A stretch of 32,000 bases of DNA, from positions 757,207 to 789,206 of the forward strand of contig NZ_LT606950.1 of the NCBI RefSeq assembly GCF_900095195.1, in the 5' to 3' direction. The notes beneath the pieces are model-generated. The model worked only from the letters and a program-made list of their open reading frames with translations. It ran no database searches and had not been told where the DNA came from. The translations under genes were made by a program, and so were the position numbers. Shown piece after piece: positions 6,712 through 26,354 of this stretch. This DNA comes from Polynucleobacter necessarius (GTDB lineage Bacteria; Pseudomonadota; Gammaproteobacteria; Burkholderiales; Burkholderiaceae). How positions within the stretch are numbered: position 1 is the first letter of the stretch; each line of letters begins with the position of its first letter.

Positions 6712-6891
6712 TCACCGGCGACGCACTTGGGTGACGCCTTTCACCTCTTCTAGGCTATTTTGAACCACCCTCAAGACCTCCGCATCTTTAACCTCAATAG
6801 TTAGCAGGATCTGAGTCGGTCCACGCCGTTTGAATCACCCGTTCTGGGGCGCGCTCTAAAAGTCCTCGAAAAGTTTTGCATGAACGACGGT
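6712..6891 (-). pseudogene. relA: RelA (GTP pyrophosphokinase) C-terminal remnant, separated from its N-terminal part by the inversion
   Basis: The - strand reads ...[31 protein letters not shown]. After a frame change it reads ...LLTIEVKDAEVLRVVQNSLEEVKGVTQVRRR* with TGA at 6714-6712. These match the RelA region after the '...GVSIHR' motif and the extreme ACT-domain C-terminus. About 50 codons between them are missing. Confidence 0.8.
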
Positions 6892-7199
6892 CTGCACGCT
6901 CATCATCGAGCGGTATCCTGAATCCACTCTTTCAACTTCGCGAGCAATTAAGCCGTAAGAAACGTAATTTAAATTAGCGCCACCGTATTGCTCGGGGATG
7001 GTGATGCCTAAGAAGCCGAGCTCACCCATTTCACGAAAAATTGCAGGATCGGCTGTTTCATTGCGGTAGGCATCAAGTATTCAAGGCATCAGCCGGTTTT
7101 GGGCGTAATCTGCCGCAGCATCGCGCACCATACGTTCTTCTTCGGTTAATTGGGTATCTAACAAAGAGGGTCTTCCCAATGAAAGCTCGCTTTACTCAT
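6888..7199 (-). pseudogene. gcdH: Glutaryl-CoA dehydrogenase, N-terminal ~100 codons only, with an in-frame TGA
   Basis: The - strand from the ATG at 7199 reads [102 protein letters not shown]. Homology ends abruptly near 6891. The TGA at 7083-7081 sits where homologues have Arg. Confidence 0.87.
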
Positions 7200-7291
7200 G
7201 TCTCTATTCATCCTTAGGATTGTTTTGACCGCGCCTGCGTGAATTCAGGAATGCGGATATGCTTTTGCCTATTATTCATTTTTCTGGGCAT

Positions 7292-7997
7292 ATGAACTCC
7301 CCAAGACGTCACCATCGTTATTACGACCTCATTTTGGCAGCCTTTGTGGTGGTATTGCTGTGCTCAAACTTTATTGGGGCGGGGAAAGCCGCGGTCGTTA
7401 CCTTGCCGTATTTTGGGGAGTTAGTATTTGGCAGTGGCATCCTCTTTTCCCCATCGCATATTTTTTTGGAACATCCTGACCGAAGTTTATGGTTACGCCT
7501 AAGATCGTAGGGCAGTGTGGGCAAGATTTGCTGCCTTAGCGTTTGTTGTGCCATCATGGCGCAAATTGTGATTGCGCTACCGGTTGCGCCAGGGCTTATA
7601 TGGCAAATTATCAGCATGGCTTAGAAACCGTATTTGGAAACTCCTGGCGGATTGCATTGGCATCCATGTTTTCCTTTTGGTGCGGCAGTTTTGCGAATAG
7701 TTTTGTCTTGGCCAAAATGAAGATCTGGACTTCGGGTCGTTTCTTATGGATGCGCACCATTAGTTCTACAGCAATAGGTGAGTTGGTGGACTCTTCTTCT
7801 ATATGTTAGCGGTTTATGGATTATGGCCAACTGCTGAAATCATTCAAGTCGCATTTGCGCAATATGCCCTAAAGACTTCTTGGGAGGTTTTAGCTACGCC
7901 ACTCACGTACTGGATCGTCAATTACCTCAAGCGCAAAGAAAACGAGGATTACTACGATATTCACACCAATTTCACGCCATTTCGGGTCAAAGTCTAG
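7292..7997 (+). pseudogene. Queuosine-precursor transporter (VUT/YhhQ family, COG1738) pseudogene
   Basis: Three consecutive ORF pieces lie in different frames. They read MNSPRRHHRYYDLILAAFVVVLLCSNFIGAGK...FGSGILF; ...ILTEVYGYA*DRRAVWARFAALAF (TAA at 7500-7502); ...VFGNSWRIALASMFSFWCGSFANSFVLAKMKIWTSGRFLWMRTISSTAIGELVDS; and ...YALKTSWEVLATPLTYWIVNYLKRKENEDYYDIHTNFTPF. Together they cover one family-length protein. Confidence 0.75.
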
Positions 7998-8051
7998 GTC
8001 GATCCCTTTTTGGGAGTTTCTTCTCGTTAACCCGTTAAAATAGTGGTCTTT

Positions 8052-8075
8052 GCCCCATCGGTGGGGCGTCTGTTG
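8052..8075 (+). terminator. Weak hairpin downstream of the yhhQ-like pseudogene
   Basis: GCCCCA-TCGG-TGGGGC (8052-8067) is followed by GTCTGTTG. The stem is short and the T tract poor, so support is low. Confidence 0.3.
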
Positions 8076-8104
8076 AACTGATTTCAGAAGGCTAGAAAAT
8101 ATCC

Positions 8105-9712
8105 GTGCTGTCCGCATCTAATATCACCATGCAATTTCGGGCAAAACCCCTGTTCGAAAATATTTCCGTGAAGTTTGGAGGCGGTAACCGCTACGGCTTG
8201 ATTGGCGCGAACGGTTGCGGAAAATCCACCTTCATGAAAATCCTTGGCGGCGAGTTAGAGCCTTCCAGTGGCAATGTGAGTTTGGATCCCGGTATTCGTC
8301 TTGGTAAATTGCGTCAGGACCAATTTGCGTACGAAGATATTCGCGTGCTCGATGTTGTGATGATGGGTCATGAAGAGATGTGGAAAGCAGCGCAAGAGCG
8401 TGATGCGATCTATGCAAACCCGGATGCAACCGACGAAGACTATATGAAAGCCGCTGAGCTTGAAGGTAGGTATGCGGAGTACGGTGGCTATACCGCAGAA
8501 GCGAAAGCGGGTGAGTTGTTGTTGGGTATTGGGATTCCCATTGAGCAACATAATGGTCCGATGAGCAATGTTGCACCTGGCTGGAAATTGCGTGTATTGC
8601 TCGCGCAAGCGCTATTTTCAGATCCCGATGTCTTGCTACTCGATGAGCCAACCAACAACTTGGACATTCACTCGATTCATTGGTTAGAGGAAGTGCTGAA
8701 TCAATTCAACAGCACGATCGTCATCATTTCACACGACCGTCACTTCCTAAATGAAGTCTGTACGCATATGGCGGATATGGACCATGGAACTCTAAAGGTT
8801 TACCTAGGTAACTACGATTCATACATGCTGGCTTCGACACAGGCAAGAGCTCAGCAATTAGCATCGAATGCGAAAGCCAAAGAAAAAATTGCTGAATTGC
8901 AGGCTTTCGTTAGCCGCTTCTCCGCAAATGCATCTAAAGCACGCCAAGCAACATCGCGTCAACGCCAGTTGGAGAAAATCGAGATCGCTGAAATCAAGCC
9001 ATCTTCTCGTCAGAATCCTTTTATTCGCTTTGATTACGAGAAAAAATTACACAATATGGCGGTTGAGTGCAATGCGCTGACTAAGGCATACGACCGAACC
9101 ATCTTCAAGAACTTCAAGCTTGGCATTCGTGCCGGAGAAAAGATTGCGATCATCGGTCAAAACGGCGCAGGTAAAACCACCTTGTTGAAAACAATTTTGA
9201 GCAAGCGATTTGATGGTATTCCAGCTGATAGTGGTGATGTGAAGTGGGCTGAAAATGCCAATGTCGGTGTAATACCTCAAGACAACACGGAGATGTTTGC
9301 AAAAGACGAGACGCTCATGGAATGGATGAGTACTTGGCGTAATACTGGCGATGATGACCAAGTAGTTCGCGGCACCCTAGGACGTCTTTTATTCTCCGGT
9401 GATGAGGTTGGTAAGTCTGTGAAGGTGCTGTCTGGTGGTGAAAAAGGGCGCATGATCTGGGGTAAGTTGATGCTGCAAAAGCACAACGTCTTAGCCATGG
9501 ATGAGCCTACCAATCACATGGATATGGAATCAATTGAGAGCTTGCAAATTGCGCTTGAGAAATTTGAGGGGACACTAATCTTTGTATCCCATGACCGTGA
9601 ATTTGTATCGGCTTTAGCGAACCGCATCCTAGAGGTGAAGATGGATGGAACGGTTGAGGATTATTCCGGGACGTACGAAGAATATCTTCGCAGCCAAGAA
9701 TTGGCTGGCTAA
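8105..9712 (+). CDS. ybiT: ABC-F family ATPase (YbiT-like)
   Basis: 535-aa ORF with a GTG start and two ABC cassettes: GANGCGKST...[11 protein letters not shown] and GQNGAGKTT...LSGGEKGRM...[11 protein letters not shown]. It aligns end to end with E. coli YbiT as I recall it ([41 protein letters not shown]). It appears intact. Confidence 0.92.
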
Positions 9713-9981
9713 GGAGATTTATTTTCTTTAGCCTGACGCTGAAAGCGGGTCGCAGTACCTTCTGCACGGATCCGCTTCCAAACAAGGGCTTTCTCTTCAT
9801 CTGAGAAAAATACCCAATTACTGACTTCGCTCAGTGTGCGCCCACAACCCTGGCAAATCTCATCATAGAGAGTGGTGCAAACACCAATACAGGGTGAGTC
9901 CGATTCGTTATCGCCAGTAGAGAGCGAGTTCGAGCCATCAAGAGGTAAGTCGGGATTAATTTTGTTGCTAGCAGCAGTCAT
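9709..9981 (-). CDS. DUF1289 (YdhL-like Cys-rich) small protein
   Basis: 90-aa ORF containing [28 protein letters not shown], the family Cys motif. Its start overlaps the upstream stop as TAATG at 9979-9983. Confidence 0.72.
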
Positions 9982-11150
9982 TAGGATACTTTAGACGATT
10001 TCAGCGGACTATGCTCGCCAAGCTCATTCACATATGCACCAATACCTTGGTGTTCACTTTCCAAAAAGTGTCCGATTGCCTCAGCAAAGCGCGGGTCTTG
10101 TATCCAGTGGGCAGATTGAATGCTGGTAGGCAGAAACCCACGCGCCATTTTGTGTTCACCCTGCGCACCACCTTCAAATGTCTGAATGCCATGGGCGATG
10201 CAGTATTCAATGGCTTGATAGTAGGCTGTTTCAAAGTGCAAGCACGGCACGCGTTCAATCGCGCCCCAGTACCTACCATAGGCTCTTGAGGATGAGTGAT
10301 CCACCACTAATAGTGAGGAGGCAATTGGACTGCCATTACGCTTTGCAATGATGAGGTGTAAATGCTCTGGCATTCTTTGAACCCAGAGCTTAAAGAATGC
10401 GGGTGTTAAGTAGGGGCTTGAGTGATGCTCTTGATAAGTATTTTGATAACAGTTGTAGAAAAATTCCCAATCGCTTGCCGTTGACTTTGTGCCCGGTAGA
10501 ACTACTGAAATCACGGGGTTTTTTGTTACGTGACTCGGTTCAGTTTCATTGGCATAACCAAGGCTTTCAAAGCTTTGAGTATTTTTTATCCGCCCTGACT
10601 ATGAAACGTCGCAAGAATATTCGTCGCGAACGCAAACAAGTATTGCGTGAAGGCATTTCATTTCGTCAGGTACCTCATGCGATAGCGGAAATAGAGTGTG
10701 TGCAGACGAGAGATGATTCTCGGTCAGAAGGGTTTTTAAGGCCCCAATCATGATCTTAGATATCTCCGTCAGATCTACGCTTGGTGAGCATAAGAGGCGA
10801 GGTCCTTGAACAGGGGTAAATGGAATGGCGCAGAGTACTTTTGGATAGTAGTTCAGCCCATTTTGTTCATAAGCTTGCGCCCAGGACCAATCAAACACAA
10901 ACTCACCGTAGGAATGCTGCTTTAGATAGAGTGGCATCGCTGCAATGAGATGCCCATCACGTTTGATGGCGAGATGAGCAATTTGCCATCCTGTGGCATT
11001 ACCTACGCAACCTGTTTCTTCAAGAGCGCTTAAAAATTCATATCTTAAGAAAGGTCCTGCATGTTGAGGAAGTAGAGCATTCCAGTCTACTGCAGAGACA
11101 TCGGTAATGCGATCGAGGATAGCGAATTGATATGAATCGTTACGCGTCAC
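9981..11150 (-). pseudogene. COG3146/DUF482 GNAT-like acyltransferase-family gene disrupted by an internal 172-bp inversion
   Basis: The N-terminal part lies on the - strand from 11150 to ~10675 (MTRNDSYQFAILDR...WQIAHLAIKRDGHLIAAMPLYLKQHSYGEFVFDWSWAQAYE...LSSAHTLFPLSHEV). The central part lies on the + strand from ~10499 to 10670 (ELLKSRGFLLRDSVQFHWHNQGFQSFEYFLSALTMKRRKNIRRERKQVLREGISFRQV). The C-terminal part lies on the - strand from ~10496 to 9981 (PGTKSTASDWEFFYNCYQNTY...YGRYWG...LHFETAYYQAIEYCIAHGIQTFEGGAQGEHKMARGF). The GTG start overlaps the gloA stop as GTGA. Confidence 0.82.
10495..10674. other. In-place inversion within the COG3146 gene (172 bp flipped, bounded by GGTA / TACC)
   Basis: GGTA lies at 10495-10498 and the palindrome GGTACC at 10669-10674. 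Flipping 10499-10670 gives a continuous frame ...SHEVELLKSRGFLLRD...GISFRQVPGTKSTASDWEFFY... Confidence 0.85.
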
Positions 11151-11538
11151 GCTGAACGTTGAATCAGTTCAATTTTGTAACCATCCGGATCGGTGACAAA
11201 TGCAATGATGATGTCGCCACCAGCAACGGGGCCAGCCTCACGAGTGACATTGCCACCCGCTGCTTTGATCTTGTCGCAGGCTACATAGGCATCTGGAACG
11301 CCTATAGCGATATGGCCATAGGTATTTCCGAGATCATAGGCATGAACCCGTAGTTGTAGGTCAATTCCAGTTCAGCCTGACCATCCGCGTTGCCGTTGCC
11401 GTATCCCAAAAAAGCCAATGCATATTTTTGTTCAGAACGTTCAGTGGTACGCAAAAGGTTCATGCCTAAGACCTGAGTATAAAAATCTATTGACCGCTGC
11501 AGGTCGCCAACACGCAGCATGGTGTGCAATAACATCAT
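11147..11538 (-). pseudogene. gloA: Lactoylglutathione lyase (glyoxalase I) with a single 1-nt frameshift
   Basis: [47 protein letters not shown]...ELELTYNYG is followed by a frame change at the C-run 11347-11349. It continues as [66 protein letters not shown]. Confidence 0.85.
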
Positions 11539-11541
11539 GCT

Positions 11542-13212
11542 TTACATTGCTCCATAGTTAGGCCCACCACCACCTTCGGGAGTGACCCAGACGATGTTTT
11601 GACTGGGGTCTTTGATGTCACACGTTTTACAATGTACGCAATTCTGCGAATTAATTTGCAAGCGCGGTTGACCATCCGCTTCGATATATTCATATACACC
11701 GGCAGGACAGTATCGCTGTTCTGGGCCTGCATATGTTTTTAGGTTGAGGCTAACTGGAATGGCCGCATCCTTCAAGGTCAGGTGAATCGGTTGATTCTCA
11801 GCATGGTTCGTGTTGGAGATAAAGACCGAGGAGAGGCGGTCGAAACTAATCTTGCCATCGGGTTTGGGATAGTCGATTAGCTGATGATGCGCAGCTGGTT
11901 CTAAACACTCATGATCAGCATGTTTTAGATGCACCGTCCAAGGTACATTGCCACCCATGACTTTTTGCTCCAAGCCAACCATGAGGGTGCCCAAATACAG
12001 CCCTTTGGACATCCATGCTTTGAAGTTGCGTGCCTGATTGAGTTCAGTATGCAACCAACTATGTTGAAAGGCGGCTGGGTAACCCGCTAGAACATCTGCA
12101 GAGCGGTTGTCGTTAATGGCTGCAACAGCGGCTTCTGCCGCCAGCATTCCCGTCTTAATCGCCGCATGACTACCCTTGATGCGAGACGCATTCAAATAGC
12201 CGGCATCACACCCTGTCAACGCACCGCCTGGGAATACGGTTTTAGGGAGACTATTTAATCCACCTGCTGTTAATGCACGAGCGCCGTAGGCGATGCGCTT
12301 ACCGCCCTCAAAGGTCTCCCGAATTTTTGGGTGCAATTTATAACGCTGAAATTCTTCAAAAGGAGAAAGGTAGGGGTTCTTGTACGAAAGACCAACGACC
12401 AATCCCACGGCAACCTTGTTATCACCGAGGTGATACAAGAAAGAGCCTCCATAGGTATCGCTTTCTAGGGGCCAGCCAGCGGTATGCACCACTAAGCCAG
12501 GTTTGCTCTTGGAGGGTTCTACCTCCCAAAGTTCTTTAATGCCAATGCCGTAGCTTTGAGGATCTGAATCTTTGTCTAGGTCAAATTTTGCGATTAATTG
12601 TTTGCCAAGGTGCCCGCGCGCGCCTTCGGCAAAGAGGGTGTATTTGCCGCGCAATTCCAGGCCGAGCTGAAATTGATCGGTAGGGTTACCTTCTTTGTCT
12701 AAATCCATTGATCCAGTGATTACTCCACAAACAGCGCCATTGGCATCGTATAAAACATCTGCAGCTGAGAAGCCTGGAAAAATTTCAACCCCGAGTGCTT
12801 CCGCTTGCTCACCGAGCCAACGCGTCACGTTTGCTAAGCTAGCAATATAGTTCCCCTCATTTTTAAAGCAGTGTGGCAACATCCAATTTGGCACTTGATA
12901 CGAATTGTCTGAAGTCAAAAATAAAAATTGATCTTGAGTGACTTCAGTATGCAGAGGGGCCCCCAATTCTTTCCAGTTGGGAAATAATTCGGTTAGCGCC
13001 ATTGGGTCCATCACAGCGCCAGACAAAATATGCGCGCCAATCTCCGAACCTTTTTCTAACACGCAAACGCTAATTTCCTTGCCAGATTCATGGGCAAGCT
13101 GCTTTGCTTTGATCGCAGCCGATAGGCCAGCAGGGCCGCCTCCAACAATGACCAGGTCGTAATCTATCGATTCCCTAGGCCCAAATTGTTCTACTAACTG
13201 CGCTTGGTTCAT
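11542..13212 (-). CDS. Electron-transfer flavoprotein:ubiquinone oxidoreductase (ETF-QO)
   Basis: 556-aa ORF with an FAD-binding N-terminus (DLVIVGGGPAGLSAAIKA) and a C-terminal 4Fe-4S region (...RYCPAGVYEY...NCVHCKTCDIKDP...WVTPEGGGGPNY). It appears intact. Confidence 0.92.
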   Translation of the reverse strand: MNQAQLVEQFGPRESIDYDLVIVGGGPAGLSAAIKAKQLAHESGKEISVCVLEKGSEIGAHILSGAVMDPMALTELFPNWKELGAPLHTEVTQDQFLFLTSDNSYQVPNWMLPHCFKNEGNYIASLANVTRWLGEQAEALGVEIFPGFSAADVLYDANGAVCGVITGSMDLDKEGNPTDQFQLGLELRGKYTLFAEGARGHLGKQLIAKFDLDKDSDPQSYGIGIKELWEVEPSKSKPGLVVHTAGWPLESDTYGGSFLYHLGDNKVAVGLVVGLSYKNPYLSPFEEFQRYKLHPKIRETFEGGKRIAYGARALTAGGLNSLPKTVFPGGALTGCDAGYLNASRIKGSHAAIKTGMLAAEAAVAAINDNRSADVLAGYPAAFQHSWLHTELNQARNFKAWMSKGLYLGTLMVGLEQKVMGGNVPWTVHLKHADHECLEPAAHHQLIDYPKPDGKISFDRLSSVFISNTNHAENQPIHLTLKDAAIPVSLNLKTYAGPEQRYCPAGVYEYIEADGQPRLQINSQNCVHCKTCDIKDPSQNIVWVTPEGGGGPNYGAM

Positions 13213-13371
13213 GCCGTTTCTCCGAAATTTCTAAAAAATGGGGTATTTCTGCCTAGATAGTTTAGTTCCAGCCGCCAAAAACCCATTTGGTGCTCGGACT
13301 ACCTGGCCCAAAGGGTCCGAAGCATTATGATTGCTTTTTTACCCTTTTTGGCAATATTTAGGACAAAAGTT

Positions 13372-14085
13372 ATGAATAAAACCTACCCATCGGCAGTAGA
13401 TGCCCTGCGGGATATCTTAAAAGATGGACAAAAACTGGCAGTTGGCGGTTTTGGTCTGTGCGGTATTCAGGGGCGAGCCCAGAGGCTCTCATTGCAGCGG
13501 TAAAGGAGCTTGGCGTACAAAATCTCACTGCGATTGCAAACAATGCTGGTGTGGATGGTTTTGGCTTAGGTTTGTTGTTGAATTCCCGCCAAGTTAAAAA
13601 AATGGTGGCCCCATACGTAGGTGAAAACAAAGAGTTTGAGCGTCAATACCTCGCTGGCGAATTGGAGTTGGAATTTACGCCCCAAGGTGCTTTGGCGGAG
13701 AAGTGTTAAGTGAGCCTGTGGTGGCGGCATTCCAGCCTTTTATACAAAAACAGGTGTAGGTACGCTGGTTGCTGAAGGTAAAGAGGAAAAAGAATTTGAT
13801 GGTGAGAAATATATCCTGGAGCGCTCTATCGTTTCTGATATTTCTCTAGTAAAGGCATGGAAAGCTGATAAGTCCGGGAACTTGGTGTATTGCTATACGG
13901 CGCGCAACTTCAACCAATTCGTCGCCATGGCTGGCAAGATCACCGTGGCTGAAGTCGAGGAGATTGTTGAGAATGGTCAATTGCATCCTGATGAAATCCA
14001 CACGCCAGGAATTTATGTACACCGTTTGGTGATTAACAAGACTCCAGAGAAGCGCATTGAACAGCGTACTCTCTCAGCAGCTTAA
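13372..14085 (+). pseudogene. scoA: Succinyl-CoA:3-ketoacid CoA-transferase subunit A pseudogene
   Basis: [32 protein letters not shown] is followed by an ~11-nt insertion (13468-13478). The gene continues as [75 protein letters not shown]. More frame breaks lie at ~13700-13880, then ...YTARNFNQFVAMAGKITVAEVEEIVENGQLHPDEIHTPGIYVHRLV. Confidence 0.85.
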
Positions 14086-14112
14086 TGATTGAAAAGAATT
14101 AGGAAGAACGAA

Positions 14113-14762
14113 ATGCCTTGGAATAGAGATGAGATGGCAGCACGTGCTGCTAAAGAATTAAAAGACGGTTATTACGTCAATTTGGATATTGGTATGCCAA
14201 CCTTGGTGGCGAATCATGTGCCCAAAGATATGGAAGTCTGGTTGCAGTCTGAAAACGGTTTGCTTGGTATTGGCCGTTTCCAACGGAAGCTACGATCGAT
14301 GCTGATTTGATCAATGCTGGTAAGCAAACAGTGACCACCTTACCTGGCTCTTCGATTTTTTCATCGGCAGATTCTTTCGGCATGATTCGTGGTGGAAAAA
14401 TCAACATCGCGATTTTGGGTGCGATGCAAGTAAGCGAGCACGGTGACTTGGCGAACTGGATGATTCCAGGCAAGATGGTTAAGGGTATGGGCGGCGCCAT
14501 GGATTTGGTTGCGGGTGTCAAGCACGTCGTCGTATTGATGGAGCACGTTGCTAAGAAGAAAGATGGCGCGGAAGAGTTGAAGATTCTTCCTAAGTGCACC
14601 TTGCCCCTAACTGGCGTCAAGGTCATTAGCAAGATCATTACGGATTTGTGTGTTCTGGACATTACGCCCAAGGGTCTCAAACTCATCGAGCTGGCTCCTG
14701 GTGTTACCAAGGAAGAAGTAATCGCCAAAACAGACGCCCCTGTAGACACTGCGGGTTTCTAA
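14113..14762 (+). pseudogene. scoB: Succinyl-CoA:3-ketoacid CoA-transferase subunit B with one frameshift
   Basis: [37 protein letters not shown]...[11 protein letters not shown] is followed by a frame break at the CC run 14274-14275 (expected GGC CCG TTT CCA). It continues as [69 protein letters not shown]... Confidence 0.85.
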
Positions 14763-14797
14763 CCCGCGTCACCATTTAATGGAATAATGGGTTCACG

Positions 14798-15901
14798 ATG
14801 TCGGGCCCCCATCATTTCCATTTCAAGCCATTTAAGTCTCAGTCTCCTGTGGGCTCGGATCCATCTTTGCATGCCCACAAGAAAGGGGATGCGCGACACT
14901 CTCATAGCAAACAAGTTGCCAATCAAAACCTTTTATTGATTGCAATGGTATTGACTCTCGGCTTTTCTGGAGTTGAGGGCGCCGCTGCTTATTTTGCCAA
15001 TTCTTTGGCATTGATTTCTGATGCGGGTCATATGGTCACGGATGCTGCAGCATTAGGATTGGCATTATTAGCGCAAATTATTTCCCGTCGTCCGCCATCA
15101 GCAAAACATTCATTTGGATTTGGTAGGGCAGAAGCCTTGGCGGCATTTGTCAACAGTATTGTGATGTTGGGTTTGGTAGTCTGGACTGTGGTGGAGGCTA
15201 TCAGTCGTTTTTATGACCCTCACAAAGTTGATGGCTTAACCGTTACTGTTGTTGCCGGTATTGGCTTGCTGATGAATGTTATTGTTGCTTGGGTGCTCTC
15301 ACGCGACAAGAAGGGTGTGAGCACGCGGGCTGCTTTGGTGCATGAGATAGGCGATTTACTCGGATCCGTTGCCGCACTAGTTGCGGGTGTTGTGATTCAG
15401 GTAACGGGCTGGATGCCGATTGACGCGATTCTCTCCATCTTGGTTTCCCTGTTGATCCTGAAATCCACCGTTTCTATCCTGCATGAGTCTTATCACTTCC
15501 TGATGGAGGGTGTCCCGCTGCACATTGACTATTTGCAAGTTGGCAAGGATTTAAGAAATGTTCCTGGCGTCTTAGCGGTTCATGATCTGCATGTGTGGGA
15601 GATGACGCCGAGCTTTCCGGCGTTGATTGGCCATATTGAAATTGCGGACATCATGGAGTGGCCTGCCATCATGGCGCGAATCAATGACATGCTTTTGGAC
15701 AAACATGGAATTGATCATGTAACCTTGCAGCCAGAGGAGGTTGGTGAGATTGCCGATGATGAAATACCAGATTCAGCCGTTTTCCATGACGACGATACCT
15801 TTTATGTTCAATGTTCAAGCGGTGAGGCGGGACACCGTATGCATACCACGCTTGGGGTAATCCCAAGAACCCTAAAGTATTGGTCTGCGTACATGGTCTA
15901 A
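14798..15901 (+). CDS. Cation diffusion facilitator (CzcD/ZitB-like) metal efflux protein
   Basis: 367-aa ORF with a His-rich N-terminus, a TM2 motif SDAGHMVTDAAAL, a TM5 motif VHEIGDLLGS and a C-terminal domain ...VHDLHVWEM...HVTLQPEE. The last ~45 codons lack family similarity and overlap the start of the next (decayed) gene. Confidence 0.8.
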   Translation: MSGPHHFHFKPFKSQSPVGSDPSLHAHKKGDARHSHSKQVANQNLLLIAMVLTLGFSGVEGAAAYFANSLALISDAGHMVTDAAALGLALLAQIISRRPPSAKHSFGFGRAEALAAFVNSIVMLGLVVWTVVEAISRFYDPHKVDGLTVTVVAGIGLLMNVIVAWVLSRDKKGVSTRAALVHEIGDLLGSVAALVAGVVIQVTGWMPIDAILSILVSLLILKSTVSILHESYHFLMEGVPLHIDYLQVGKDLRNVPGVLAVHDLHVWEMTPSFPALIGHIEIADIMEWPAIMARINDMLLDKHGIDHVTLQPEEVGEIADDEIPDSAVFHDDDTFYVQCSSGEAGHRMHTTLGVIPRTLKYWSAYMV

Positions 15902-16640
15902 CAAGACGTGGAAGTGATTTCAAGACATTGGCGCTAGCCATGTGCAATGACTATTACGTTGTTTGCCGTGATGTAGTTGGTTGTGGAGATTCGGATCGTT
16001 TAAGTAATCCCATGCAATACGCTGTTCCGCAATACGTAGCGGATATGACCGACCTCGTTAAACATCTCGGTGTCGATCAGGTGGATTGGTTTGGTACTTC
16101 CATGGGTGGATTGATCGGCATGGTCTATGCAGCAATGCCTAACTCACCAATTCGCCGTATGCTCATTAATGATGTTGGTCCTCGGATTGAGCCTGACGCG
16201 ATCAAGCGTTTGGGCTCGTATGTTGGTCAACCATTTCTTTCGCCAATCGCACCGATGCACTTAATCGTTTAAATCAAATTTGTGCGACATTTGGTGAGCA
16301 CACGCTAGCAGAATGGGAGATATATAACGGACCGATGTTGGTGCAACGTGATGGCATGTGGATCATGCACTATGACCCAAACATCTCGGTGCCATTTGCC
16401 TCAGTCAATCCCATCATGGCCAAGGCAGGTGAGATGGCGATGTGGCATGCGTTTAAGCAAATCCATATCCCCATGTTAATAGTCCGTGGCGGAGATTCGG
16501 ATCTCTTATCCGCCGCAACTGTTGCCGAGATGTGCAAAGTGAATCCTTATGCCCGCAGTATTGAGATTCATCACGTGGGTCATGCGCCAGCTTTTATCAA
16601 AGCAGAGCAAATTGCTTTAGCGAAGGAATTTTTTAGTTAA
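15756..16640 (+). pseudogene. Alpha/beta-fold hydrolase pseudogene
   Basis: The pieces lie in three frames. They read MMKYQIQPFSMTTIPFMFNVQ...; ...YAYHAWGNPKNPKVLVCVHGLTRRGSDFKTLA...VDWFGTSMGGLIGMVYAA (GxSxG nucleophile elbow); then, after a shift near 16235, ...ISFANRTDALNRLNQICATFGEHTLAEWE...MLIVRGGDSDLLS...HHVGHAPAF. Confidence 0.72.
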
Positions 16641-16663
16641 CCATTTGGTTTAATCTTTGCCTA

Positions 16664-17407
16664 TGGCAAATGTACCTACCAATCCAGAAAAACCATCTGT
16701 CTTCCAAGATGCTTGGTATGGTGAGCCTTCTCAGTCCCATGCTCTGGGCGCTGCCCAAATACTCGAGACCTTAAATCTAGATAGGAGGCTTTAGTAAAGC
16801 TAATTGGCGATGAGGCTACTAAGCTGTTCATTGGTTACCGAGGTTTACGACAGGCGCAAGCCAAATTAGTCCGCGAAGATAGCGGCTTAAGTATCTCCGG
16901 TCAAGAGGAGATGTTGCGCAAGATGCTTTTAGCATTTGGTGATGATTTGCGTGTGGTTCTCATTTATTTAGCATCGCGTTTATAAACGTTGCGCTGGGTG
17001 ACTCAAGAAAAGATAGAGATGCCATCAGCATGGGCGCAGGAGATTCTGAATATCGATGCTTCATTGGCAAACCGGTTGGGTATTTGGCAGATGAAGTGGG
17101 AGATGGAGGATTTGGCTTTCCGCGTACTGTCACCCGTTGTCTATCGTGATATTGCCAATATGCTCGATGATGAAGAGGCTTGGCAGATTGCCAAACACGT
17201 TGAGACTAAACCGGATGTCTCAGAAGTAAAAGCTACTTCACCCGAAATTGTTCTGCGACATAGTAGTTGTAAATCAGGGCAAGGGGGTGATGTCTTGGTG
17301 GTTGGCGTTGATTCATTGTTGATGCAACTAGCCCGCTGCTGCAGACCAGTGCCACCGGATGCTATTGCGGGATTTGTGACACGCGGCAAAAGTGTCTCGA
17401 TACACCG
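16664..17407 (+). pseudogene. relA: RelA N-terminal and central remnants, heavily deleted and truncated by the inversion
   Basis: MANVPTNPEKPSVFQDAWYG...ILETLNLD is followed by stops and frame changes. Later pieces read ...LIGDEATKLFIGYRGLRQ...EEMLRKMLLAFGDDLRVVLIYLASRL* and ...ANRLGIWQMKWEMEDLAFRVLSPVVYRDIANMLDDEE. The sequence then jumps to ...[37 protein letters not shown]. The (p)ppGpp-synthetase catalytic block that should lie between is absent. Confidence 0.85.
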
Positions 17408-18273
17408 CTTTAGTCATGGTGCCGATTAATGAATTTGGCAGCGAAGCGCAAAAGCAAAAATATCTTCCAAGTCTCGCTACTGGGGAGTGGATTGGTTGCT
17501 TTGGTTTAACTGAACCAAACTACGGCTCCGATGCTGGCGGCATGATTACCCGCGCCAAGAAAGTTCCAGGTGGATTTTCATTAACGGGCTCAAAGATGTG
17601 GATATCCAACGCACCGATTGCGGATGTATTTGTCGTTTTGGCCAAGAATGATGAAGGCGTCATCCGAGGGTATATTTTGGAAAAAGGCATGAAGGGTTTA
17701 AGCGCTCCGAAGATTGGCGGCAAGATGGGTCTGCGCGTTTCCATTACTGGCGAAATCGTGATGGACGATGTATTTGTGCCAGCAGAAAATGAATTCCCGG
17801 AAATTATTGGTTTAAAAGGTCCTTTTACCCGCTTAAATTCCGCTCGCCATGGAATCTCTTGGGGGAATTTAGGTGCAGCTGAATGGTGTTGGCATGCTGC
17901 CCGTCAATACACGCTGGATCGCAAACAATTTGGCAAACCCTTGGCGGCTAATCAACTGATTCAAAAGAAATTAGCGGACATGCAAACGGAAATCGCGCTC
18001 GCCTTACAAGGCTGCTTGCGTTTAGGCCGCATGAAAGATGAAGAGATTGCCGCTCCTGAAATCACCTCCATCATGAAACGCAACTCCTGTGGCAAATCCC
18101 TTGATATTGCTCGCATGGCACGCGATATGCATGGCGGCAACGGTATTTCAGATGAGTATGGCGTGGTACGTCATATGATGAATCTCGAGGTCGTCAACAC
18201 CTATGAGGGCACACATGATATTCATGCGCTCATCTTGGGTCGCGCACAAACAGGTATTCAAGCTTTTAGTTAA
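17404..18273 (+). pseudogene. gcdH: Glutaryl-CoA dehydrogenase, C-terminal ~290 codons, detached from the N-terminus by the inversion
   Basis: ...(T)[52 protein letters not shown]...[15 protein letters not shown]...[16 protein letters not shown]...[44 protein letters not shown]. It continues exactly where the 7199-6892 fragment stops. Confidence 0.9.
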
Positions 18274-19351: not shown

Positions 19352-19751
19352 TTAGCGAATCTTTTGCAAAATATCTTCAGGCCATGGTGCTGATTTTCTG
19401 GTAGCAAGGTCGGCCCACACCATCGTCGCACCGCCTAAGGCCATTTCCTCATTAGGAGCAGTAGTGAGGGCCATGCTCGTACGACCAAACGCCAATCGAG
19501 GTCTTCAATATCAGGTCACCTGGATAGCTCACTTGCTTATAGAAATTACAGAAGCCATTCATCATCACCATGGTGTTTTGACCAAGAGCCACTTGGTAAC
19601 CCAATGATGTAATCCAATCAACACGGGCTTGCTCCATAAACCGAAAGTACACTGTGTTGTTCAAACGCTCATACGCATCCATATCCCCCCAACGAATGGG
19701 AGCGACCATTTCATGAACGAGTTTGCGTTCAGCAGGAATATCGATGCGCAT
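19352..19751 (-). pseudogene. YbgC/4HBT-type acyl-CoA thioesterase with one frameshift
   Basis: MRIDIPAERKLVHEMVAPIRWGDMDAYERLNNTVYFRFMEQARVDWI...NGFCNFYKQVSYPGDLILKTSIGV is followed by a frame break at the A-run 19487-19489. It continues as GRTSMALTTAPNEEMALGGATMVWADLATRKSAPWPEDILQKIR*. Confidence 0.7.
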
Positions 19752-19759
19752 TAAAAAAT

Positions 19760-20104
19760 TTAACCAATTTGCAAAGCAAAATTGTATAAATTGGTAGACC
19801 GAGCACCAGAACGACAAAAGGCCAAGATTGGGCCTGGTAACTCTTTTAGCAAACGAGCCATCTCTTGAACTTGCTGTGGCGTAAATGCGCCTGGAACTAC
19901 AGGCAAATACACATAATGAAGCCCTAATTTTTCCGCCTCTGCTTGGATTGATGCGTTACTAGGCTGATCTGGGCCACCCTCTCCATCAGGACGGTTATTG
20001 ATCACGCTTTTGTAGCCAAGCTGGGCAATTTCGGCGACGTGATCAGGAGCAATTTGTCCAAGAGTGGCAAACGAATCCGTATGGCGTGTAATTGGAGGGG
20101 GCAT
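19760..20104 (-). CDS. TIGR01244/DUF442 family protein (Blh N-terminal-like sulfurtransferase/phosphatase fold)
   Basis: 114-aa ORF reading ...GQIAPDHVAEIAQLGYKSVINNRPDGE...PGAFTPQQV...ILAFCRSGARS. It has the Cys-loop motif typical of the family. Confidence 0.72.
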   Translation of the reverse strand: MPPPITRHTDSFATLGQIAPDHVAEIAQLGYKSVINNRPDGEGGPDQPSNASIQAEAEKLGLHYVYLPVVPGAFTPQQVQEMARLLKELPGPILAFCRSGARSTNLYNFALQIG

Positions 20105-22474: not shown

Positions 22475-22504
22475 GCGATTCTCATTTCCATTTCCGTGAC
22501 AAGA

Positions 22505-22957
22505 TCATGATCCACAGCCACTTAAAGTCACTTTTACTTCCTTGGACGTTACCAACCATTTTGAATCTACTCTTACCAATGCGTACACATTAGATGTTTG
22601 CGCCATTTTGATCCGAGTCGTTACAAATGGCTCACTAAGTGGCGTTAAAAAGAATTGTCCAGCTAAAGCGCTAGGGTTCTTTTCAACCAGTATGGCAATG
22701 TGTTGGGCCTTTAAATCTGTAGTTACAGTTACCGGAACCAGCGCACCATTCTCAGATAGATCTGGGGCGGTTAAATTGATAGCCGAGGATTTTTCAGGCA
22801 AGCCAGCCCTCAGAGCCCTGTATACATCCTCAATATTCTTGGCATCAAAGGCTGCCTTATTCCACTCTTCCGCCTGTGCAAAAGATATCAGACCAGCTGA
22901 GGCCATCAAACCCATTAATGCCGTAAATCGAATTAGCTCTCTTCTGTTTAAATCCAT
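22505..22957 (-). CDS. soxY: Sulfur-carrier protein SoxY (Tat signal; C-terminal Cys swing-arm)
   Basis: From the internal ATG at 22957 it reads MDLNRRELIRFTALMGLMASAGLISFAQA, a twin-arginine signal. It continues ...INLTAPDLSENGALVPVTVT...KVTLSGCGS*. The carrier Cys is retained in a GCG context; the canonical ending is GGCGG. Confidence 0.85.
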   Translation of the reverse strand: MDLNRRELIRFTALMGLMASAGLISFAQAEEWNKAAFDAKNIEDVYRALRAGLPEKSSAINLTAPDLSENGALVPVTVTTDLKAQHIAILVEKNPSALAGQFFLTPLSEPFVTTRIKMAQTSNVYALVRVDSKWLVTSKEVKVTLSGCGS

Positions 22958-23124
22958 AAACCTGCAAACATGTCCCATTAACCAATTAATGTATGGGAAC
23001 AACCCTTTCATTGTCTTAAGATGCGTTGATTTTATCGTCCCGACTCCCTAAAGCTTAGTTTATTTACAGATAACGCAAATATCAGGGAAAATGAGTCTCT
23101 TTGCATGAAAAACGATAACTCCAA

Positions 23125-23781
23125 ATGATTGATCAAGAAGCCATTCTTCTCTCCCTCAAGCTTGCTTTGTGGATCTTGGCATTGATCATTCCGTTTGGCA
23201 TCTGGATCGCCCATTCGCTTCAACGCCTTGGGCATAGCAAATCCTGGATTGAGGCCGGGCTAGCACCCCCCTTAGTTCTTCCCCCAACCGTTTTAGGGTG
23301 CTACCTTTTAGTGGGCCTAAGTGGTAAAGCTTTTTTTGGCACACCACTAATTTTTTCCTTTCCTGGGATCTTAATAGCATCCCTGATTGTGAACTTACCA
23401 TTTGCTATACAACCGATCCAACGTGCATTTAAAGCAATTCACCCTGAAATTATCGAGGCAGCCGAGGTCAGCGGTTTATCAAAATAGCAAATCTTTCGAT
23501 TGATTGAGTTACCACTTGCGTGGCGTGGCATCACTAGTGCAGCAGTGCTAACTTTTGCCCACACCCTTGGCGAGTTCGGAGTAATTCTCATGGTGGGCGG
23601 TGCAACACCAGGCGAAACCAAAACGGTATCGATTGCAATCTACGACAAGGTGCAAAGTTTTGATATAGCAGCCGCTGGCACGCTCTCACTCATCTTATTG
23701 GCAACCTCGCTGGTAGCAATTGCAATCTCTTATGGCGTATTTGGTCGTCAAGCGTCTTCATCTCGATATCAAGGTCGCTAA
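23125..23781 (+). pseudogene. modB: Molybdate ABC transporter permease with an in-frame TAG
   Basis: ...PPLVLPPTVLGCYLLV...IIEAAEVSGLSK*QIFRLIELPLAWRGITSAAVLTFAHTLGEFGVILMVGGATPGETKTVSIAIYD... The TAG at 23485-23487 occupies the conserved Trp position (E. coli ...GAGRWRVFFTVTLPL). The frame is otherwise continuous. Confidence 0.85.
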
Positions 23782-24426
23782 TGTTGAGAATCAAGCTCTC
23801 CCAAACAAGCCCTAACCCACTACAACTCAATATTGAATGCGAGCCTGGAGAGTTGCATGCACTTATAGGCCCATCTGGCAGTGGTAAGACCACCACCTTA
23901 CGTACTATTGCTGGATTAAATAACCCCAACATCGGAAAAATTGAATGCAATCATGAAATTTGGTTTGAGGCAAATGAGCACCAAGATACGATTACCTCTC
24001 TCAGCCCCGCTCAACGTTCATGTGAATTCCTGTTTCAGCAGTACGCACTTTTTCCACATCTGACCGCGCTGGACAATTGACTTGGAACGGCAGCCAGCAC
24101 CTCTTTCATGTAGTCGATAAAGGAAAGATTCCACCCAATACTCCGGTTGCTTGGGTTGTTCCAGCTGGTGGCCTCAGTCTTCTGGCCAGTCCAACGGTCA
24201 CTACGATTGCATGCTCCGTTGAACAAATTAGCGCTTTAGGTCAAATCGCGGTAATTCAGCTGTGCACGGTTGATGGCAAACACAACATTATTTGGGGGCC
24301 TCAGTGGCAGAGGCTAAGCGCTTGGGACTTGCACCAGGCATCAGTACATTTTTAGAAATCGATGGCAACAAGATCCACATCTTGCCGCTGCGCCCCATCA
24401 ACGATCCAAGACGCTTTACGAATTAG
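23781..24426 (+). pseudogene. modC: Molybdate ABC transporter ATPase with an internal deletion and frameshifts
   Basis: Walker A (GPSGSGKTT) and Q-loop (FQQYALFPHLTALDN*) are present. The ABC signature, Walker B and H-loop are missing. The sequence resumes with TOBE/Mop-like pieces in other frames (...EAKRLGLAPGISTFLEIDGNKIHILPLRP...*). Confidence 0.8.
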
Positions 24427-24438
24427 CGGTTTATGCAA

Positions 24439-25109
24439 TTAAGAGGATGAAGGCTTTTGGACTACCAACCCAGGTATTGCTGACATTCCTGTATGCCTTG
24501 GTCCCTCCGATGGCTCCTTTTCGTAGGATGTCAGCTCATGAATAATGAAATCTTTTGCTAATTCACGGATGAGCTCTTCGGTGTAGAGATGCTCAATCAG
24601 TGATGGGCCACCTGTCTTATATTCCAACTGCTTTGGGGTGTAGCCCTGCAAGGTAAAAATACCTCCCGACTTTAGCGCTTCAAAAGTTTGACGAAAAATA
24701 CGTGCGCGCATTACGGGGTCTGCAAACCGTATAAAGACGCCTACTACAGCATCGTATTCAGTGGACTGCCAATCAAAACTGTCCGTATCCGAGAATGAAT
24801 ACGCGACCTGAACCTGATTGTGTTCTGCAAATTTCTTGGCCTTAGCCAGCGCAACATCGTAGGCATCAAAACCACAACCACTTGCATACCTTGCATTGCA
24901 AGCCAAACACCATTACGCCCCTCCCCGTCGGCAATACAAAGCACCTTGTCATTAGCCTTTAAATACTGGCTAGCAGTTTGCACTAGGTATTCGTTTAGTT
25001 CCTTTCCAAAAATGAACTCTTCTTTATCAAAGCGCTCATTCCAGAACTGCGTAGCATCCGCAAAACTCATTGCTCGATCGAGATGTACTTGTTTATTTTT
25101 TGAGTCCAC
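24439..25109 (-). pseudogene. Class I SAM-dependent methyltransferase with a frameshift
   Basis: The first piece reads MDSKNKQVHLDRAMSFADATQFWNERFDKEEFIFG...KVLCIADGEGRNGVWLAMQGMQV. After a frame change near 24875-24900 it reads GFDAYDVALAKAKKFAEHNQVQVAYSFSD...YDAVVGVFIRF...LKSGGIFTLQGY... Confidence 0.7.
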
Positions 25110-26294
25110 CGACTAAATCATTTTTGAGGTCGTTAATATTCTCTAGACCTACAGCAATTCGCACTAATCCATCGGAGATACCAGTCCTTACAATCTGCAG
25201 CGCTCACACGACAATGCGTTGTTGTCGCTGGGTGGGTAATCGTTGTGCGAGCATCGCCCAAGTTCGCTGTAATCGAACATAGCTTGGTTTGATTAATCAA
25301 TTTAAAGGCTGACTTTTTCCCGCCTTTGAGCACAAAGGAAACAATCGCCCCACCCTCTTTTTTATTGACGCATGGCCAATGCATGCTGTGGATGGGACTT
25401 AAGCCCTGGATGATAGACGCGCTCAACGCCAGGCTGCTTTTCGAGCCACTGGGCAAGTGCGAGCGCATTCTGACTCGTTGCTTCATCCGCAGCTCAAGAG
25501 TTTCAAGGCCTTTTAAGAATACCCAGGCATTGAATGCCGAAAGTGTGGGTCCTGCGGTACGCACATAGGGAAATACCTTGCCCATGACAAAGTCATTGCT
25601 ACCCACAATGGCGCCACCAACGACTCTACCTTGACCATCCAGATACTTCGTAGCCGAAGACAACGTCAGCACCCAGAGCCAATGCCTTTTGCAAGGCAGG
25701 GGTACAAAAACAATTGTCAACCGCAAATAATGCTCCCGCCTTCTTTGCAACTGTAGAGATTGCTTTGATATCAGCGATCTCAGTTAGCGGATTAGATGGC
25801 GTCTCTAGATAGAAGAGTTTAGTGTTTGGCTGCACAGCAGCTTGCCAAGATTTGATGTCCGCCAAATCGACATAAGTTGTAGTGATTCCAAAACGACCAA
25901 GGATGTTCGTAAACAGCTGAATCGTTGCACCAAATACGGAGCGAGAACAAACCACATGATCGCCAGCTTGCAAATGCGCCATCGCCATTGTCAAAATAGC
26001 GGACATTCCAGAGGCAGTTGCAATACATGCTTCCCCACCTTCGAGAGCAGCCAAACGATCTTGGAACATGCTTACTGCGGGGTTGGTAAAGCGTGAATAG
26101 ATAAAACCTTGGTCAGCATGCGCAAAACCATCGGCAACCATTTCAGCGCTATCAAAGCAGAAGCTCGAAGTCAAAAACATCGCTTCGGAATGCTCTTGAT
26201 ATTCATGAGTACGACGAGTGCCAGCACGAACCGCGATGGATTCAAGTGCTAACTTGGAAAAATCAGGTTTTCTGCAGGTGATTTTACTCTTCAT
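25093..26294 (-). pseudogene. metZ: O-succinylhomoserine sulfhydrylase / Cys-Met PLP-enzyme pseudogene with several frameshifts
   Basis: The N-terminal 222 codons are in frame (…FIYSRFTNPAVSMFQDRLAALEGGEACIATASGMSAIL...LFYLETPSNPL...AVDNCFCTPALQKALALGADVV). The remaining pieces are scattered over other frames: SATKYLDGQGRVVGGAIVG...[26 protein letters not shown]; ...[31 protein letters not shown]; ...ITANLGDARTTITHPATTTH; ...GISDGLVRIAVGLENINDLKNDLVGGLKK* (TAA at 25095-25093). Confidence 0.85.
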
Positions 26295-26354
26295 GCCCCC
26301 ATTTTGACACCGAATTGCGGATTTGCCTCCTCAAAGACAAATTCTTGTCGATTT

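Follow-up and report, generated by a model that had tools for sequence, protein, structure and literature searches.

A conservative 172-bp inversion at 4-bp inverted repeats within a FemAB_like gene of the Euplotes endosymbiont Polynucleobacter necessarius

Polynucleobacter necessarius is an obligate endosymbiont of Euplotes ciliates, whose genome is rich in pseudogenes and in an early phase of reduction. The stretch of DNA analysed here (the window) comprises 32,000 nucleotides of the P. necessarius contig NZ_LT606950.1, and contains a gene of the FemAB_like/DUF482 family (PF04339; COG3146) that is broken as deposited. The gene is made up of three parts, the central one of which is reverse-complemented in place between two short inverted repeats:

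9981-11150, minus strand: FemAB_like/DUF482 gene (PF04339; COG3146), whole, broken as deposited
10671-11150, minus strand: N-terminal part of the gene (PF04339 positions 2-146, E 1e-55; orthologues align in minus orientation)
10499-10670, plus strand: central 172-bp block, reverse-complemented in place (PF04339 positions 147-204, E 1.9e-16)
9981-10498, minus strand: C-terminal part of the gene (PF04339 positions 204-368, E 2e-63; supported by orthologue alignment)
10495-10498, no strand: GGTA, microhomology at the left breakpoint, read from the sequence
10671-10674, no strand: TACC, microhomology at the right breakpoint, read from the sequence; with GG at 10669-10670 it forms the palindrome GGTACC

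In a Pfam search, the 369 positions of PF04339 are covered by three abutting ORF matches, with the middle match on the opposite strand from the other two. The minus strand as deposited encodes a 183-aa N-terminal ORF (10599-11150) and a 177-aa C-terminal ORF (9981-10514); the frame of the former begins at the same GTG start as in orthologues, runs on into the flipped block and ends at a stop at 10599. On the plus strand, the central block encodes ELLKSRGF...ISFRQ(V) and is contained in a 118-aa ORF (10397-10753) that spans both junctions of the inversion.

Reverse-complementing 10499-10670 yields one uninterrupted ORF of 389 aa, which matches PF04339 over its full length (positions 2-368 of 369; E 5e-148) with 493.5 bits, above the gathering score cutoff of 27 bits. 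Owing to the ambiguity of the 4-bp ends, flipping any interval up to 10495-10674 restores the same ORF; the flipped segment therefore measures 172 bp, or up to 180 bp if these ends are counted. The repaired protein shares 72-78% identity with eleven Polynucleobacter orthologues of 386-392 aa (mostly 390), and aligns with them without gaps at both junctions (...SHEV|ELLKSRGF... and ...SFRQV|PGTKST...). No other frameshift or stop was found in the repaired gene, either in the restored ORF or in the orthologue alignments; the inversion is the sole lesion in the gene. On the window-specific branch, the gene has undergone three non-synonymous changes (one of them at a nearly invariant Arg) versus one synonymous change, a comparison of very low power; the pattern is compatible with an already dead gene, and the counts are far too small to weigh.

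The orientation of the central block was established by nucleotide alignment with ten free-living Polynucleobacter loci, comprising nine from the GTDB species set and L085, the locus of protein P0003, which is among the closest intact orthologues found (78% aa identity). In all ten, the flanks align one way and approximately 10517-10675 align the other way, with the centre matching only as a reverse complement; the segment thus occupies the same position as in the orthologous loci, but as the reverse complement. Both junctions are free of gained or lost bases, which makes the inversion conservative. Inverted complementarity between the breakpoints extends over exactly 4 bp, and is bounded by a C/T mismatch on the outer side and a G/G mismatch on the inner side. 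The GGTACC palindrome now lies at 10669-10674, and in the pre-inversion sequence it lies at 10495-10500. For random in-place inversions of 100-300 bp within the FemAB_like gene, the chance of at least 4 bp of inverted microhomology at the breakpoints is P = 0.017, so the observed microhomology exceeds chance expectation; given that 4 bp is short, this value on its own is suggestive and not overwhelming. A repeat search found no longer inverted repeats flanking the block, and no hairpin or stable single-strand fold was found at the interval (z = -1.47 for the ancestral single-stranded fold). Comparison with the free-living loci revealed no other small flips elsewhere in the window.

An earlier note, made from the sequence alone, had proposed that the central block is encoded in place but reversed on the plus strand at 10499-10670, that flipping it gives an uninterrupted frame, that the junctions lie in GGTA (10495-10498) and in TACC (10671-10674) within GGTACC, and that the inversion is the only inactivating event. 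The three-piece Pfam matches and the orientation of the orthologues, the full-length match of the 389-aa ORF, the breakpoint sequences and the repaired gene free of other frameshifts or stops bear out these four claims in turn.

The 118-aa junction-spanning ORF is on record as a predicted protein from the source contig (P0204), with a Pfam FemAB_like match, and the inversion is thus present in the deposited P. necessarius genome. All ten of the window proteins that were looked up have identical entries in the public collection, eight of them with P. necessarius accessions (WP_1146624xx and WP_2319684xx), and all ten are assigned to a single NCBI contig of 1,550,368 bp. No second assembly with the inversion was found in contig searches with the ETF-QO, 118-aa and 183-aa ORFs, or in a homology search with the 118-aa ORF; the latter returned the source's own ORF and ordinary fragments only. 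P0205, which covers 82% of the 118-aa ORF, was considered as a second inverted case and rejected, as it is a fragment in normal orientation. A search among ETF-QO homologues for a closer intermediate lineage found none beyond the source cluster, which includes the contigs of the sister lineage described below; the next match past this cluster is a 95%-identical free-living MAG, in which the 2.7-kb contig ends before the FemAB_like gene.

The sister lineage is represented by three independent assemblies, L081 (ENA ERZ27248707), L082 (Logan SRR32119647) and L083 (Logan SRR8208349), which are 97-99% identical to the window (98.8% over 7513-14142). The gene next to the FemAB_like gene, gloA (glyoxalase I; about 11160-11538, minus strand), has a frameshift near 11345 caused by a 1-bp deletion in a G run. 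This frameshift is common to the window and to L081 and L083, which indicates that pseudogenes were already present in the common ancestor; the sister lineage has acquired a 5-bp duplication and a 19-bp deletion in gloA in addition. Gene fragments are dense at 13200-17400, 19450-19820 and 22500-26300 of the window, and include two CoA-transferase subunits, HD and ACT pieces of spoT/relA, a 4HBT thioesterase, a TPMT/methyltransferase and an ABC permease. A CDF transporter-hydrolase fusion is split (14798-15901 and 15880-16272), and an enzyme of Cys/Met metabolism is divided into two overlapping ORFs (25133-26294). Several kilobases of the free-living locus L086, encoding TauE, thioredoxin, lactamase_B, sulfite oxidase and cytochromes, are missing from the window.

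In the sister lineage, the 172-bp inversion is absent, and the FemAB_like gene has been disrupted by four lesions of its own (+4, -91, -179 and -1 bp). The 179-bp deletion, at 12517-12521 of L081 and also found in L082 and L083, corresponds to 10504-10682 of the window, and the bases lost are nearly the same ones that the window carries inverted (...CCCGGTACCTGATAGCGG...). This deletion can be derived from the un-inverted (repaired) sequence in a single step at 2 bp of microhomology. From the inverted sequence, the sister allele cannot be reached by one deletion, as the shared prefix and suffix fall 3 nt short. Most parsimoniously, then, the block had not yet been flipped when the two lineages diverged, and the 172-bp inversion would be recent, confined to the window lineage and younger than about 1.2% divergence. 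Less parsimoniously, an ancestral inversion was followed by deletion in the sister lineage; this requires two deletions versus one, and accounts no better for the coincident end points. An argument from indel counts against an ancestral inversion is weak, because the window lineage is free of extra indels in the already dead gloA too.

The 172-bp inversion is enclosed in a second, larger inversion, which was delimited by orientation relative to the free-living loci L001, L003, L008 and L085:

6892-17403, no strand: 10.5-kb inversion enclosing the 172-bp inversion
6888-6891, no strand: CGGT, left microhomology of the 10.5-kb inversion (4 bp)
17404-17407, no strand: ACCG, right microhomology of the 10.5-kb inversion (4 bp)

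The breakpoints of the 10.5-kb inversion lie at the 3' end of a decayed spoT/relA-like gene, which is clipped, and within gcdH (glutaryl/acyl-CoA dehydrogenase), which is split into a C-terminal piece at 17392-18273 (plus strand) and an N-terminal piece on the minus strand just right of 6892. Joining the junction halves gives ...GCATGAACGACGGT|GTATCGAGAC..., a sequence that L081 retains unbroken, apart from a single substitution (AACGG, versus GACGG in the window); the other reconstructed junction preserves the frame and length of gcdH. Both reconstructed junctions are thus loss-free, and the 10.5-kb inversion is also perfectly conservative. The two inversions therefore have an identical signature, namely 4 bp of inverted microhomology with no gain or loss at any of the four junctions, and both are absent from the sister lineage. 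The earlier note had placed the small inversion within a larger microhomology inversion, which holds, and had called a clean example with such nesting unusual; the 10.5-kb inversion covers about 38% of the comparable sequence, so that the nesting as such is not statistically remarkable within the window. Over about 7000-18000 the GC skew is positive, with negative values to the left and right; inversions centred on the origin or terminus were rejected as an explanation for the nesting, because this is an island of reversed skew with no skew switch. The microhomologies of both inversions share a GGT/ACC core (GGTA/TACC and CGGT/ACCG), for which we estimate a probability of about 6%, and which is not significant.

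We interpret the 172-bp flip as a lineage-specific, conservative inversion at 4-bp inverted repeats in a gene of a Euplotes endosymbiont, produced by microhomology-primed strand exchange (probability about 0.8). This strand exchange most likely took place during replication; replication template switching as the specific cause is plausible but unproven. The segment would have been swapped between strands at GGTA, which lies within the ancestral GGTACC palindrome, and TACC. A nascent 3' end terminating in ...GGTA would pair, at the segment's far end, with TACC of the opposite strand; copying back through the GGTACC palindrome would leave the nascent end again as ...TACC; and this end could return to the original template at the TACC site, with 4 bp available at each switch. 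The inversion would then mark a step in the neutral decay of a dispensable gene within a run of pseudogenes. Several points count against this explanation: the inverted allele is known from one assembly only, the repeats are short, the enclosing 10.5-kb inversion has the same signature but exceeds the reach of a short-range switch, and the near-coincidence with the end points of the sister deletion is unaccounted for by a simple one-off event.

The events that Loytynoja and Goldman catalogued are reportedly mostly tens of base pairs in length, many of them creating or perfecting inverted repeats; in P. necessarius, by comparison, 172 bp were flipped at 4 bp of homology, and no inverted repeat was created. 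Their four-point template-switch model, which generalises Ripley's bacterial quasipalindrome model, converts a fragment into its own reverse complement in situ, as observed here, through a switch to the opposite strand followed by a return (Loytynoja and Goldman, 2017; PMC5453318). The model explicitly lists inversion of a fragment only, and favours switches between strands (PMC5453318); the path outlined above would be its "inversion only" case. The template-switch origin suggested in the earlier note is therefore upheld insofar as the signature fits this case, but not as a specific assignment, since the same signature fits reciprocal break-and-join equally. Microhomology-primed U-turn inversions, which resemble the 172-bp inversion, are frequent in organelle genomes, likewise reduced and endosymbiont-derived, under replication stress (PMC4417113, published in 2015); these U-turns are single junctions observed in reads, shorter than 50 bp and unfixed, whereas the P. 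necessarius inversion is completed, fixed, conservative and has two junctions. Inversions at short inverted repeats in E. coli, and FoSTeS/MMBIR, are likewise illegitimate rearrangements that use very short inverted homology and need no dedicated recombinase. Repeats of 12-23 bp are involved in the classical cases from E. coli, and MMBIR events usually change copy number.

Reciprocal illegitimate recombination, or a double break rejoined at microhomology with the fragment religated in flipped orientation, could instead have generated the 172-bp inversion, and would also have made the 10.5-kb inversion. This is a possible, if less probable, origin. It fits the sequence signature of the 172-bp inversion as well as template switching does, and copy-back over 10.5 kb is implausible for a short-range switch within a replication fork; given that the larger inversion has the same loss-free, 4-bp signature at its junctions, break-and-join could explain both inversions more economically. 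A fragment that had been excised, and was then either lost or reinserted flipped, would also cover the loss of almost the same interval in the sister lineage. However, end-joining of double-strand breaks usually leaves resection scars, and none are present at the four junctions. There is also no site-specific enzyme or recognition site common to both ends (GGTACC occurs at one end only), and the end points of the sister deletion are offset by 5 and 12 bp and involve a different, 2-bp microhomology.

The most interesting residue is that the same interval of roughly 175 bp was broken repeatedly in two sister lineages. The end points of the 179-bp deletion are at most 5 and 12 bp from those of the inversion, a coincidence with a probability of about 1 in 1000 (a rough estimate) if the two events were independent; a local hotspot, or fragile site, is a likely reading of this overlap. 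Both breakpoint sites carry the imperfect direct repeat TCG(N2-4)AGGTA (sense strand), and one of them also carries the GGTACC palindrome; as a consequence, the same pair of sites can produce a deletion by annealing directly, or an inversion by annealing as inverted repeats. The closely matching deletion in the sister lineage is a hint of fragility determined by the sequence itself. The stronger proposition, that the interval is a genuine rearrangement hotspot at which these two sites gave rise both to the deletion in one symbiont lineage and to the conservative inversion in the other, is tentative and rather doubtful.

An improbable alternative is that a single complex event, either a multi-switch or a shattering, made both inversions by converting A-B1-C-B2-D to A-B2'-C-B1'-D. 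In such an event, the 172-bp block (C) would have kept its original orientation, and its flanks would have been swapped and flipped. Microhomology of 4 bp without loss of bases is common to all four junctions, both inversions arose after the split from the sister lineage, and there is no known lineage with just one of the two, all of which a single event would explain. Against this, two ordinary sequential inversions suffice, given that nesting in an inversion of this extent is not improbable, and replicative multi-switch events normally alter copy number, with no such change seen here. If either the hotspot or the single multi-switch reading were true, microhomology-driven strand exchange would contribute to gene loss repeatedly and predictably when genomes begin to shrink, in a way that annotation pipelines miss.

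We regard it as very improbable that the inversion is a sequencing or assembly artefact, in the form of a chimeric amplification product or a mis-join, and that the true gene is intact. In favour of an artefact, only one deposited assembly contains the inversion, the gene has no further flaw once repaired, and strand-displacement amplification produces inverted chimeras at microhomologies. However, a 4-bp repeat cannot mislead an assembler, and an exact flip with two junctions would arise only if one and the same double chimera made up most of the coverage. In addition, the surrounding 10.5-kb inversion has the same signature, and the excess of non-synonymous changes on the window branch, with its very low power, fits a gene that was already dead.

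There is scarcely any likelihood that the flip is a programmed intragenic inverton, serving as a reversible, recombinase-driven on/off switch. Other bacteria do have intragenic invertons by which premature stops are introduced, and as here the inversion lies wholly within a coding sequence and truncates its product (Chanin et al., bioRxiv 10.1101/2023.03.11.532203); the P. necessarius flip is also exact, and in frame when reversed. In contrast to this flip, intragenic invertons have recombinase-recognised repeats of about 11 bp or more, as in the thiC inverton with its 11-bp inverted repeats, and are reversible and heterogeneous within populations (bioRxiv 10.1101/2023.03.11.532203), none of which is seen here. 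The inverted repeats in P. necessarius are only 4 bp long, compared with the roughly 10 bp or more expected for a recombinase, and free-living orthologues differ in sequence at both sites. No invertase or recombinase was found among the window ORFs or the annotated syntenic loci; the lack of long inverted repeats and of a recombinase argues against a programmed switch. Moreover, the genome belongs to an endosymbiont undergoing decay, and in the sister lineage the block was simply deleted.

Inversion mediated by an IS element or other repeat was rejected, as the window is colinear with the free-living loci and has no inserted DNA at any breakpoint; no transposase or IS element was found in the window. 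Quasipalindrome correction of the Ripley type was likewise rejected, because there is no imperfect palindrome across the region and no new inverted repeat was created.

The 172-bp flip is a clean but not unprecedented example of gene breakage during the decay of a symbiont genome, and it leaves knowledge of the mechanisms themselves unchanged. As a natural case it is unusually clean, in that the gene was inactivated by a conservative, microhomology-bounded flip alone, the ancestral sequence can be restored base for base, and the time of the event is bracketed by the sister lineage. Such lesions escape standard pseudogene calling, and the chimeric 118-aa ORF is stored as a "protein" in a public collection. 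Because they are invisible to such calling, their share in the mutational spectrum of decaying symbionts is essentially unmeasured.

Two sister symbiont lineages have independently rearranged one pseudogene-rich neighbourhood, as the sister lineage has an inversion of its own, which comprises the block corresponding to 7513-14142 of the window. Its breakpoints lie at about 9160-9178 and at 15419 of L081 (7513, 14142-14267 and 17468 of the window). One junction has 1 bp of microhomology; the other is untidy, with filler and the loss of about 800 bp that include the N-terminus of gcdH. One of its breakpoints is 60 bp from the gcdH breakpoint of the window. In the FemAB_like gene, the AGGTA motif is present at both breakpoints of the 172-bp inversion, and the 91-bp deletion of the sister lineage (10176-10266 of the window) abuts GGTAGGTAC (sense strand), a further copy of this motif.
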